A DNA stretch of 64,000 nucleotides, taken from Octopus vulgaris (Eukaryota). The position numbers and the translations under genes were made by a program. Location of the stretch: positions 66,898,001 through 66,962,000 of the forward strand of contig OX597833.1 of assembly GCA_951406725.2 (NCBI GenBank), read 5' to 3'. The notes under the pieces were generated by a model. That model ran no database searches, was not told the DNA's origin, and worked only from the letters and a program-made list of their open reading frames with translations. This document shows, piece by piece, positions 3,676 to 56,234 of the stretch. Each line of letters starts with the position of its first letter. Position 1 is the first letter of the stretch.

Positions 3676-3880
3676 GTTAATCCAAACAAGAAAGCACAAA
3701 AAAAACACAACACGTGAGGACGTGGAACAAATATAGTATTATTAGACGCTCAAGAAAGAAGGAAAGAAGGAGGGTTTAACGTTTCGAGCGGAGCTCTTTG
3801 TCGGAAACATAGGAGAAAGAAAGATCCAGAGAAGGGAAGACAGATGAAAGGAAAATCGCCAACGGTACACACGAGGTCAC
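3676..3880 (-). mobile_element. ~200-bp non-coding repeat with a minimal hammerhead fold (family H3)
   Basis: Near-identical to 10107-10277, 29436-29635 and 56034-56234; flanked by (TA)n/(CA)n; hammerhead-like fold at 3774-3808. Confidence 0.75.
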
Positions 3881-3945
3881 ACACACACACACACACACAC
3901 ACACACACACACACACACACACACACACATATATATATATATATC

Positions 3946-4368
3946 GTTTGTTTTTTTTATTTCTCGTATTGTATTTTATTTCTCGTTTTGTATTTTCTTG
4001 TACATGTATTTTTATCTTGTATTTTATTGTGCAGTTTTATTGTTACGTCCTGTTTGTGTTACATTTTTTTCGTGCTTGTTTTACCCCTCTGCGAGGTTAT
4101 TTTATTTTAATTCTCTCGCAGGAAGGCCTAGTATTGACGAGTCGTGTCCTGTCTGGCCTTCGAAACACGCTAAGTCTACTAGCGACAGCTGATGAAGGGG
4201 ATTTTTCCTTATGTAGTATGTCCTGTACCTTGTTTTTCTGTTGTAAATAATGTTTTTCCCGTTTTCGTTCTCGTCCTGTTCCACGTCTCTGTCTTTCTGT
4301 TGTAAAAAAATGGCTTTTCCGTTTTCGTTTCTGTTGAGTTCTACGTCTTTTTGTGGTGTCCTGTACGT
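3946..4368 (+). mobile_element. Penelope-pLTR/retrozyme-like non-coding element with a type I hammerhead fold at 4128-4182
   Basis: Stem I CTAGTA/TACTAG, TTGACGA..GAAAC..GTC; bounded by (TA)n on both sides. Confidence 0.6.
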
Positions 4369-4712
4369 ATATATATTTATATTTGCATGTATATATACAT
4401 GTAGATGTAGGTACGTACATATATGTTTGTATGTATGCATATATTTTATTTATTACACTATATATATATATATATATATATATATATATATATATATATA
4501 TAAATATATAGATGTATATATATATATATATATATATATATATATAAACTTGTGTGTGTGTGTGTGTGTGTGTATTTAAATGGGCTGCCACGATTTTCCC
4601 CAAAGTTCAGGAGGCTATTTGCTGCAGAAGATTAGTTTGGAGACGTTTAGTCCTGAAGAAGGCAACTGAAGGTTAGCCTTGTCAGCCGTGGTTGCCAAGG
4701 GATAGAAACTTA

Positions 4713-4939
4713 AGGCGGCGAGCAGGCAGGAAACGTTAGCACGCCGAGTGATGCTTAGCGGTATTTCGTCTGCCGTTACGTTCTGAGTTTAAATTCCGCC
4801 GAGGTCGAATTTGCCATTCATCCTTTCCGGGTCGATAAATTAAGTACCAGGTACGCACTGGTTTCGATGTAATCGACTTAATCCCTTTGTCCTTGTTTGT
4901 GCCCTCTATGTTTAGCCCCTTGTGGGGAATAAAGAAATA
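4713..4939 (+). mobile_element. SINE family M (tRNA head, Meta/Sauria-like central domain, Tx1-like 3' tail)
   Basis: ggcggcgagc..gagtttaaattcc head; 'ttcatcctttccgggtcgataaattaagtaccag' domain; tail 'tttagccccttgtggggaataaagaaata'. Confidence 0.75.
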
Positions 4940-5146
4940 AGAAACTTTCTGCCGGTGATGACTAGTACAGTTCACATTTGCTCACTTAGGAAAAGCGTAC
5001 AGTTTAAGAGATGAAATGCTTGTGATGTTGAGATACTTGTTGAACGTACAGATATTACAGTAAACTTAGTCATCATCAGCAGAAATTGTTACAATATACA
5101 AAACTAGGAGAGTATTTTAGTTCACTTGAAGCATTCTGTATTGTTT

Positions 5147-5448
5147 CTAAAGAATAAAAAGTTTTGAATGGTACAACAATGCACTATAATACAAAGTATA
5201 TAACTGTTGTAATTTAGTTATCCATACTCTAATAATATTTCGGAATAAAATTCCTTCTTCAGATAGTCTTAGAGGAAATCGCTGCTATAACCGATTATAG
5301 CAGAGACCCCCATCTAAATATATCTGAAGAAGGAATTTTATTCCGAAATATTAGCAGACTATGGGTGACTAAATTATAAGAGGTATATAACCCATTGTTT
5401 GTATTATAGTGCATTGCTGTACGATTCAAAACTTTTTTTATGCTTTAG
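5147..5448. repeat. ~300-bp foldback (inverted duplication), each arm with a minimal hammerhead core
   Basis: Arms pair around loop CCGA at 5291-5294; CTGAAGA-A-GGAAT-TTT-ATTCC-GAAA at 5324-5348 (+) and its mirror at 5238-5262 (-). Confidence 0.8.
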
Positions 5449-6216
5449 TAGCTTCTAGATTTTCTGAGTAGCACAAAACATCTCTCGTATTTATTCCACG
5501 TGTATAGATAACCAGCTTGGACCCCCAACAGTAACAAAACGAAACATCTCCTCTAATGACTCCCATGGCACTAAAGCAAAGTCAGGAGGCAAACACGAGC
5601 TCAGTGTAAACGTGAAAAGTTAAATATAAACATACAGAAAACAGAGCAAGAGTCACACAAAAACAAAAAAAAAACTTAAAATACGACAACCAAATGAAAA
5701 AATAATTGTATGGAAATTTCATTTTCACTGATACAAATAACGGAAAGACAAAAAAAAAATACAAAAATAGGTAAATATTAAAAAGCAAATAAAATTTAAA
5801 TGTCTGGTTTATATTTTATTAGAATTAAAACAATGCGTAAATAGTGCGATGTGGATGGGGGATTATGGCGTATTAGGAAGCAGCATGAAATTATAATTTC
5901 AAATGGAACAAATGAATAATTTACAGCAAATTTTAAATGGAAATCCTATGAATATCGTTGCGTATTGTATTGTGATGTACAGACGACAGCCATACGTCAG
6001 AAGAACGAAGAAAAAAAAAGCAAAAAACAACAACAGAAAGACAAAAAATGACGATGGTATTTGTTACCGAAAAGTATTATATACTATCTACATTGACGCA
6101 ATAGTAACAACAACAACAACAACAAAAACAACAACAACTACTATAGTAATAATAATAATAATAGTGATTTGAAGTTTTGACACAAGAACAGAGATTTCGT
6201 GGAGAGGTAAGTCGAG

Positions 6217-53654: not shown

Positions 53655-53970
53655 ACTTCTCAGTAAAGGAATGTGGGCAGTACTTGTAAGCACAATCTTT
53701 TGGATTTTTCTGAGATATGGTTCTTCTGGGATGTTATCTAGATGTTTCTGACATCCCTTTCTTATCATACCTAGAGTACCCACAATAACAGGAACAATTA
53801 TCGCTTTAATATGCCACATCTTTCGTATTTCAATTTCCAGGTCCTATATTTACTTAATTTATCAAATGCCTTTACAAGTTTTTTTTATTAGTGGGAACAC
53901 TTACATCTATTAGTCTACGAGTATTTTCTTCGATCTTTAATGATAATGTCTGGTTGATTAGCCTGGATCG
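53655..53970 (-). mobile_element. R4/Dong-like RLE domain relic
   Basis: IQANQPDIIIKD..LIDVSVP..LEIEIRKMWHIKAIIVPVIVGTLGMI..IQKIVLTSTAHI. Confidence 0.85.
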
Positions 53971-53979
53971 TTCAGTGTA

Positions 53980-54210
53980 TAAGTTAAGCTAATTTTTTGG
54001 CTCAAAAGGCAAAAAGCAAGGCCATGTAGGGGGACATGGAGTTATGTACAGGGAGGGTGTTCATGCAAAGAGTTCAGGCCATTTCTGGTCAAGAGAGACT
54101 TTGAACCGAGCGGTCGTCGGCATCTTCACTATCTCGTCCGGCAGCTTATTCCATGGATCCGCAACGCGGACGGAAAAAGCTCCTCTCCTTCGATTGAGAT
54201 GAAATCGTCG
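53980..54210 (-). mobile_element. CR1-like LINE 3' fragment
   Basis: Near-identical to 6220-6448. Confidence 0.8.
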
Positions 54211-55537
54211 AAAGCTATAGGAGTGGCTATGTGGTAAGTAGCTTGCTTACCAACCACATGTACTGGATTCAGTCCCACTGCGTGGCACCTTGGACAAGTG
54301 TCTTCTACTATAGCCTCGGGCCGACCAGAGCCTTATGAGTGGATTTGATAGACGGTAACTGGAAGATGCCCGTCATATATATATATATATATATATATAT
54401 ATATATATATATATATTTTCACTCCTCTCCGATTTTTATGTGCGCATGTGCATTTATGCTTGTGTAAATCGCTCTCAATATCCTAAAAGTTATTTATGTC
54501 ACTATACGGAGATGATTCTGTCAAAAATACATTGTACTTTCCGCTCTAATGAGTAGAAACCGATTACAATAATTACTGCATAATACACTGAAGAGAAAGA
54601 GAAATAATCACGTGACGCCATTGCAAGCATTGCTGCGGCATGACCGCAATCCAGCATCTGACACTTGCAAAAATCTAACAAGCGCCATTGTCAATTTATA
54701 AGCTGACAATGAGATATTTTCAATGCTTATCTTCAAAAAGACTATCCAAACAATATTTATCCATGTTTGACAAGCAATGTTTAAACTCAACATTTTACGA
54801 AATCATTTTAAATATTTTCCTTCTTTTATCATTTTATTTTAAAAGATAGTCTCGCATTTAATGAGTTTCTCATATTTGTCAAGGCAATTATAATTGGTTG
54901 GTTTGTAGTTTTCAGATTGACAAACCTTCATTAGTAAAGGATTTATATTCGCTGTATATATATATATATGTCCATTTTGAAATGCTTTCCTGCTCAAAAT
55001 GTGTTTTTTTTTTCCTCCTCTTAAGTCGGTAGCATTACTTTGTAAATAAATTGTATTATGCAAATCTTATTTTCTGATGCTGGTTCAGATAAGCTGTATC
55101 TGATTTCAGTATATATTTTCTATTCCATGTTATTCTCGTCCTGTCATATAAAATGTAATAGTAGTAGTAGTAGTATTAGTAGTAGTAGTAGTATTAGTAG
55201 TAGTTGTTGTAGTAGTAGTAGTAGTAGTAGTTGTAGTTGTTGTTCTTGTTTTTGTTGGATTGGCGATGGTGCTGATGCTGAAGATAGTGTTAGATTGGCA
55301 TAACTCCATATAGCGCTGTACAGCAAAAGCCGGAGGTAATTCTTGGCATTCGTAGACGTTTTGCGTTCGTGCCTTGCTAGTGATCTTTTCTCTTTACCTA
55401 TCATCCTTCCGTTCAGGAGAAGTTAAAATAAAATACAGTAACCCCTAGCCACATCACGGTTTACTATTTAAGCTCACGTCCATTCCTCGGTGGTGTTCTT
55501 TGGTATTTATAATAAAATGCAAAATAATATGCAAATA

Positions 55538-55945
55538 TGCAGGAGTGGCTGTGTGGTAAGTAGCTTGCTTACCAACCACATGGTTCCGGGTTCAGTCCCA
55601 CTGCGTGGCACCTTGGGCAAGTGTCTTCTACTATAGCCTCGGGCCAACCAAAGCCTTGTGAATGGATTTGGTAGACAGAAACTGAAAGAAGCCCATCGTA
55701 TATATGTGTATATATATCTATATATATGCGTGTGTGTGTTTGTGTGTCTGTGTTTGTCCCCCTAGCATTGCTTGACAACCGATGCTGGTGTGTTTATGTC
55801 CCCGTTACTTAGCGGTTCGGCAAAATAAACCGATAGAATAAGTACTGGGCTTACAAAAGAATAAGTCCCGGGGTCGAGTTGCTCGATTAAAGGCGGTGCT
55901 CCAGCATGGCAGCAGTCAAATGACTGAAACAAGTAAAAGAGAGTA
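55538..55945 (+). mobile_element. SINE family A, full length
   Basis: A and B boxes, CORE-like segment, internal microsatellite, tail. Confidence 0.85.
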
Positions 55946-56033
55946 AATATGATCACGCAAGCAAATGAATATGCAAAATACATACATACATACATACATA
56001 CATACAGATGTACACACGTATATATATACAAGG

Positions 56034-56234
56034 TTAATCCAAACAAGAAAGCATAAAAAAGCACAACAACGTGAGGACGTGGAGCAAATATAGTATTATT
56101 GGACGCTCAGGAAAGAAGGAAAGAAGGAGGGTTTGACGTTTCGAGCGGAGCTCTTCGTCGGAAACATAGGAGAAGGAAAGCTCCAGAGAAGGGAAGACAG
56201 AGGAAAAAAATCGCCAACGGTACACACGAGGTCA
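56034..56234 (-). mobile_element. Family H3 repeat; best-preserved hammerhead fold with a GUC site (56131-56165)
   Basis: GTTT-CCGACGA-A-GAGC-TCC-GCTC-GAAAC-GTC-AAAC on the minus strand. Confidence 0.75.

Follow-up and report, generated by a model that had tools for sequence, protein, structure and literature searches.

Minimal hammerheads of Penelope-like elements and the octopus H3 repeat

Minimal hammerhead ribozymes (min-HHRs) have been described as widespread, mostly solo motifs that are weakly active and probably stem from truncated Penelope-like elements (PLEs; Cervera & de la Pena 2014, PMC4209133). Here we analyse H3, an Octopus vulgaris repeat family built around such a motif, in a 64,000-nucleotide stretch of assembly GCA_951406725.2 (contig OX597833.1, positions 66,898,001 to 66,962,000 of the forward strand; henceforth the window, whose numbering is used throughout). 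The closest published motif is the min-HHR of the Neptune element of Acropora digitifera (Fig. S3 and Table S1 of PMC4209133). H3 shares with PLE min-HHRs the type I layout, a short helix I, an extra base between positions 9 and 10.1, the G10.1-C11.1 pair, a palindromic 15.2-16.2, a 4-bp helix II ending in GCUC and a predominance of solo copies, and the core CUGACGAA is common to the A. digitifera Neptune motif and to the H3 subfamily with the canonical U at core position 4 (U4). By contrast, most H3 copies carry C at this position (C4), helix I and loop 2 are different, and no open reading frame (ORF) is linked to H3 in the window. None of the Fig. S3 rows examined in PMC4209133 has C4, though the search pattern behind it may exclude C4.

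The role of the hammerhead in PLEs has been called unclear (PMC8557442). In the Anolis Poseidon element PAc, hammerhead mutations had no effect on insertion in vitro, and cleavage was protein-assisted and dispensable (Frangieh et al. 2024, PMC11167929); protein binding was mapped to the initial 172 nt of its ORF, a region overlapping the hammerhead, and reverse transcription started in a separate AC-rich stem-loop. The initial annotation had allowed that the H3 fold might act only as a recognition signal for reverse transcriptase. H3 resembles PAc in its AT-rich targets, its hammerhead near the 3' end and its optional tail of 30-40 nt, a PLE feature described in both PMC8557442 and PMC11167929, whereas PAc is coding, belongs to another clade, has a hammerhead that overlaps the ORF start and carries engineered core changes (C3G, G8C). 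A natural viroid hammerhead with U4C cleaves much more slowly in vitro, yet supports infection in vivo, and A6C is likewise a slow but not dead natural variant (Perreault et al. 2011, PMC3088659). The viroid U4C is the same core change as in H3, but there it is a rare variant of a ribozyme with tertiary contacts, while in H3 it is the predominant allele of a genomic repeat and stands in a minimal motif without evident tertiary contacts. A literature search found no report of U4C in PLEs: the terms 'hammerhead' and 'U4C' together returned only PMC3088659, with Lunse et al. 2016, which may list C4, lying outside the search.

For O. vulgaris, PMC13282606 counts 31 PLE families with recent activity, alongside 893 families of short interspersed nuclear elements (SINEs) left unclassified; its available text does not mention hammerheads. 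The octopus PLEs Hydra-1_Obim and Naiad insert into (TA)n as H3 does (Craig et al. 2021, PMC8557442), although Naiads are described as lacking canonical hammerheads; the H3 motif strings do not occur in the accessible supplement of that paper.

The H3 features in the window are the following:

3676..3880, minus strand: H3 copy 1, with 3' tail; hammerhead at 3774-3808; C4 and the CpG-decay change G8A
10092..10275, plus strand: H3 copy 2, with a 5' end that starts 90 nt ahead of C3, the longest of the four, and without the 34-nt tail; hammerhead at 10178-10212, helix I of 2 bp
29436..29635, plus strand: H3 copy 3, with a 5' end that starts 54 nt ahead of C3, the shortest of the four, and an expanded T-rich tail; hammerhead at 29486-29520
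56034..56234, minus strand: H3 copy 4, the reference sequence for placing read contigs
56034..56067, minus strand: optional 34-nt 3' extension of copy 4, absent from copy 2, likely the PLE 'tail'
56131..56165, minus strand: minimal type I hammerhead of copy 4, with helix I GTTT/AAAC, core CCGACGA (position 4 at 56160), an extra A, helix II GAGC/GCTC, GAA, the palindrome ACGT and position 17 at 56135

The initial annotation had proposed four near-identical copies without a transfer RNA (tRNA) head, lying in TA/CA tracts, and each of these statements is borne out. The 24-nt H3 core is matched four times in the window with up to 3 mismatches and never in 100 shuffles, and the copies are 89.6-97.0% identical to each other and 1.4-4.1% away from their majority sequence (n=4). 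ARAGORN finds no tRNA gene in the window and no tRNA stands among the 150 of 288 Rfam matches listed, though worn heads can escape both. Each of the eight junctions is found no more than 15 nt from a dinucleotide (TA/CA) tract, and such tracts occupy 16.7% of the window; H3 thus has the (TA)n or AT-rich insertion sites of PLEs, with target-site duplications unreadable inside such tracts. The annotated bounds were right in placing four copies and needed correction in that copy 2 begins about 15 nt earlier and lacks the last 34 nt; the copies are also less uniform than proposed, copy 3 being without the first ~20 nt. The 5' ends lie 54, 73, 76 and 90 nt before C3 (n=4), a variable 5' truncation as in PLEs, with those of copies 1 and 4 only 3 nt apart and copy 2 reaching 14-17 nt further. 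The 3' tail is missing in one of four copies, and in four sequencing runs (below) its depth is 4-12% of core depth, a low value that could partly come from variation in T-run length; H3 therefore has the optional 30-40-bp 3' tail of PLEs. All four copies are solo, none stands in tandem, and none is joined to an ORF end. With four copies per 64 kb and placed contigs numbering in the thousands, the family can be called abundant, and no more precise figure follows.

C4, the ACGT palindrome, helix II (GAGC/GCTC) and the extra A after A9 are each present in all four copies. The min-HHR core CUGANGA with GAAA is matched by the U4 subfamily; all four window copies deviate at position 4 and copy 1 also at G8, its core being CCGACAA (G8A). 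Further published min-HHR features (the extra nucleotide between 9 and 10.1, the G10.1-C11.1 pair and helix II, in four of four copies, and a palindromic 15.1-16.1 that would form helix III in a dimer, an NUH site and a short helix I) were found, in agreement with the proposal of a minimal, dimer-type hammerhead. U4C was rightly assigned to all four copies; position 17 is C in copy 4 alone and U in copies 1-3. The proposed fold stands for ACGT and helix II; its helix I, GTTT/AAAC, measures 4 bp in copies 1, 3 and 4 and is cut to 2 bp in copy 2. The claim of a fixed CCGACGA core failed, given the CCGACAA of copy 1 and a U4 share of 23-27% of family depth in all four runs.

One could suppose that H3 is an unrelated SINE or miniature inverted-repeat transposable element (MITE) that resembles a hammerhead by chance. 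Consistent with this, whole-copy folds of H3 are no better than those of shuffled sequences (z 0.21 and -0.06), the structure predicted at minimum energy for whole copies is not the hammerhead (helix II has a predicted pair probability of 0.43-0.97), and no hammerhead family is among the 150 of 288 Rfam matches listed for the window, which are microsatellite-driven microRNA matches and one small nucleolar RNA match. However, a strict hammerhead scan of the window returns eight matches, whereas 30 shuffles gave 0-1 apiece; the eight are three H3 copies (copy 1 fails on G8), two copies each of the further families F2 and F3, and one probable chance match at 21412. In addition, helix I covaries between families, on both sides of the helix, as GTTT/AAAC, CTTT/AAAG, GCT/AGC and CAT/ATG. 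Among the 109 unique matches listed from a metagenome scan (below), helix I reaches at least 3 bp in 37 of the 57 that bear a hammerhead core versus 8 of the 52 others, many of the 57 being kin. Together with the near identity to the published Neptune hammerhead, these results largely refute a chance fold, which we find scarcely credible.

Position-4 alleles across the H3 family

To the four window copies we can add public sequencing data. Twenty-four runs were listed with words of the family, with substantial shares in four organisms, and four runs were analysed by placing their contigs on copy 4 at 80% likeness (22,601; 14,185; 5,164; and 4,610 contigs; 46,560 in total). Allele shares are summed depth over overlapping contigs, a rough measure that gives no copy number. 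By this measure, canonical U4 at 56160 accounts for 27.2, 27.0, 23.1 and 26.3% of depth, and C4 for 73-77%. Decay of a CpG was tried as the source of U4 and rejected: 12 other CpG cells listed show a decay allele at 0.8-10.9%, and the partner G of the position-4 CpG itself at 0.8-3.5%. The G8A change of copy 1 is at this CpG-decay level across the family (1.3-4.7%). Since its share exceeds that level, U4 is a real subfamily, and C4 is the amplified majority of H3, about three-quarters of the family, rather than a fixed state. That C4 had spread by amplification and not by decay, as first proposed, is therefore upheld.

The rest of the motif varies little. Position 17 is U in 82-94% of depth, the remainder being C or A; the commonest helix I change reaches 8-12% and keeps a G-U pair; and no helix II change exceeds ~4% among the variant rows listed. 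In three runs, 47, 56 and 26 contigs have loose ends behind 56164, combining the H3 hammerhead side with another upstream sequence (median ~90 nt), as expected of a diverged subfamily.

Coral Neptune relatives and the origin of H3

Exact H3 patterns gave no match in metagenome contigs and none in viral contigs. A metagenome scan with the helix II/ACGT frame fixed and core positions 3-7 free returned at least 120 loci, and the 57 core-bearing matches mentioned above, all with CYGANGA, comprise 24 with C4 (22 of them CCGACGA) and 33 with U4. Most belong to one animal repeat family of coral type (L001-L119). Its proteins match RVT_1, some with GIY-YIG accessions, and the two named matches are from Pocillopora and Acropora; its U4 form agrees with the A. 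digitifera entry in Fig. S3 of PMC4209133, which Table S1 assigns to Neptune. The end of an ORF for reverse transcriptase and GIY-YIG lies upstream of the motif, on the same strand, in L008 (U4) and in L009, L089 and L106 (C4), L089 looking like a duplicate of L009, and a CX2-5CxxC linker is present in all four full-length relatives examined. Short copies of this family form a ladder of 5'-truncated ends of the coding PLE, accompanied by inverted pairs, and their 5' ends also pile up just before the hammerhead, despite the coding element. We also observed that this family (for example L009:3680-4100 and L055:1000-1920) has U4 and C4 subfamilies, an optional tail and a G-U variant of helix II, GGGC/GCTC. 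Another coding PLE, L068, shares the helix II/ACGT frame and has U4. Literature searches with the H3 and coral motif strings returned unrelated work only, and those with the SINE strings returned nothing.

Within the coral family C4 shows linkage to columns further downstream (23 C4 and 24 U4 copies; lowest p 6e-14). On a 44-row tree of weak resolution, 3 changes account for position 4, compared with 15 in shuffles; this tree dropped rows that lacked a full core, had less than 70 nt downstream or were duplicated, and some of its rows may be one host locus resampled. Each of two families that cannot otherwise be aligned contains U4 as well as C4, so position 4 has changed at least twice, and since C4 lies within a CpG, the direction of the change could run either way.

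From these data we favour, at somewhat better than an even chance, the reading that H3 copies are 5'-truncated 3' ends of a Neptune-type PLE. In its support, the coding Neptune elements of corals carry the same motif, in both allelic forms, at their 3' end, and the connection to Penelope drawn in the initial annotation is strengthened by the min-HHR features and the near identity to the A. digitifera Neptune hammerhead. As an element H3 is of an ordinary kind and looks like a member of an established system, that of PLE 3' ends bearing minimal hammerheads.

The insertion steps can be sketched from the work on PAc in PMC11167929. A master PLE copy would be transcribed from a partial tandem, its protein would nick AT-rich DNA and reverse-transcribe from near the RNA 3' end in a target-primed manner, and insertion into TA microsatellites would probably be carried out by the PLE reverse transcriptase and GIY-YIG endonuclease. 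Two start points of reverse transcription could give copies with and without a tail, and synthesis would mostly halt at 150-220 nt, leaving solo, largely inert ends. Cleavage by the hammerhead would require a dimer and the aid of protein, and a single C4 master lineage may have been copied more than the U4 lineage, since insertion can do without fast cleavage. No partial tandem or inverted arrangement of H3 was seen in the four window copies; in the reads, two contigs are head-to-tail, with a 3' end joined to a truncated 5' end, one in run X1 and one in run X2.

Several results weigh against an origin from a Neptune-type PLE. Searches of the window with PLE proteins (tblastn) gave no match, Pfam detected no reverse transcriptase or GIY-YIG domain in 122 of the 194 filtered window frames (from 484 frames of at least 55 aa), and peptide searches with the translated antisense H3 frame found nothing at E 0.01 apart from two repeat-driven false matches. 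The likeness between H3 and the coral family extends over ~30 nt and is in part imposed by the search pattern, so the assignment of H3 to the Neptune clade is indirect. The double hammerhead is predicted at about -7 kcal/mol (0 for copy 2), compared with a cofold minimum of -22 to -25. Hydra-1_Obim, an octopus PLE that does insert into (TA)n, has a different hammerhead in the description of PMC8557442. Finally, the 5' ends of three of the four copies cluster inside 17 nt, and beyond 56234 the agreement of loose ends drops (0.48-0.57), which a short master would explain equally well. Hydra-1_Obim was itself tried as the partner of H3 and rejected on its hammerhead, which has a long helix II and a 4-bp helix III.

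The ends bear directly on a second account, in which H3 is a dedicated non-autonomous element of ~215-220 nt, that is, a short master consisting of a PLE 3' end only, with a PLE of Neptune or Hydra type copying it in trans. The closely spaced 5' ends of copies 1 and 4, with copy 2 longer by 14-17 nt, would suit such a master, as would the loose ends past 56234, which in all four runs agree with the extra 5' bases of copy 2 for ~9-13 letters and are then mixed and AT-rich; these ends were counted per contig, however, which over-represents unique flanks and could hide a conserved continuation. The coral relative piles up its 5' ends before the hammerhead too, yet codes. Non-autonomous PLEs have been described in Chlamydomonas (PMC8557442), and because no H3 copy is tied to an ORF, with an ORF end in none of the four, this account stays a live rival; on the other side, H3 has neither a promoter nor a tRNA head (ARAGORN), and head-to-tail contigs are rare, one each in two of four runs. 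We regard it as a real possibility, though not as the expected outcome.

Animal non-LTR (long terminal repeat) retrozymes are, like H3, short, non-coding and equipped with a type I hammerhead (Cervera & de la Pena 2020, PMC7229834), and H3 could be such a unit, transcribed, self-cleaved, circularised and re-inserted. The size of H3 is near that of retrozyme monomers, 220-240 bp in coral (PMC7229834), H3 is present in run X6, which we guess to be RNA, and derivation of retrozymes from the pseudo-long terminal repeats (pLTRs) of PLEs has been argued (bioRxiv 10.64898/2026.07.22.740005). Yet retrozymes are described in PMC7229834 as tandem arrays with canonical hammerheads and circular RNA, whereas H3 is dispersed and minimal, with a helix I of 4 bp: all four window copies are solo, two head-to-tail contigs stand among 46,560 placed, no tandem array was found in these data, and X6 is only a guess at RNA. 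We consider a retrozyme very unlikely.

Sister family F2, core variants and other repeats of the window

The window holds three copies of a family with the same hammerhead frame as H3, the last of them worn:

22903..23052, plus strand: F2 copy a, hammerhead frame as in H3, core CTGCTGA with A6C, helix I CTTT/AAAG
46005..46190, minus strand: F2 copy b, core CTGTCGA (A6U)
49454..49540, minus strand: worn F2-like copy c, also without A6

Besides the frame, F2 shares with H3 the downstream GAGCGT block and, in two of its copies, the AAC-(TA)n end, and its helix I is compensated. A6 is replaced by a pyrimidine in three of three copies, and this loss is possibly a second amplified core variant. U4C and A6C are reported as slow and not dead, so the changes amplified in H3 and F2 count among the tolerated ones (the statement does not extend to A6U), and they fit either weak residual cleavage or relaxed catalysis.

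On this basis, we predict that C4 slows cleavage without blocking spread. If H3 does derive from a Neptune-type PLE, our judgement is evenly balanced on whether C4 keeps weak residual cleavage; that it abolishes cleavage seems to us a little short of even, and that it is fully active, unlikely. What is new here is the amplified C4 core itself, found in two animal lineages, octopus and coral. In both, a core-variant subfamily has spread alongside or past the canonical one, which provides natural allele pairs to assay. A bolder proposal, which we put forward tentatively and think rather doubtful, is that C4 is a recurrently favoured, slow-cutting core of Neptune-type PLE hammerheads: it would have reached high copy number separately in octopus and coral, nearly always beside C7, the sister octopus family lost A6, and selection on these elements may work towards damping the ribozyme they carry. 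A literature search for a U4-U7 contact, which might explain the pairing of C4 with C7, returned chemical-modification work only. If the ribozyme is indeed damped, the natural pairs of U4 and C4 subfamilies would be a ready test of the purpose of PLE hammerheads. Moreover, if published search patterns require U4, as the consensus suggests, ribozyme counts would miss most H3 copies.

Other repeats of the window include an inverted pair of another min-HHR family at 5147-5448, with core CTGAAGA, palindrome ATAT and cores at 5262 (minus strand) and 5324 (plus strand), in a head-to-head layout typical of PLE 5' inversions. A T-rich non-coding element at 3944-4330 (plus strand) adjoins the 5' microsatellite of H3 copy 1 in opposite orientation; GAAAC comes after its GAAGGCC/GGCCTTC hairpin, a CTGATGA stands apart, and the element is perhaps a worn PLE end. 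The 326-aa frame at 39556-40814 (plus strand) has a weak zf-CCHC match below the cut-off and 65% identity to an uncharacterised Octopus sinensis protein, and resembles the remnant of a retroelement ORF1. In keeping with an octopus host, a window ORF unrelated to H3 has two protein matches, each from Octopus sinensis by name. Finally, several other high-copy short repeats, with at most ~12 overlapping matches and without hammerheads, lie for example at 12120-12572, 41115-41503, 50415-50712 and 55538-55951 and are probably SINEs.

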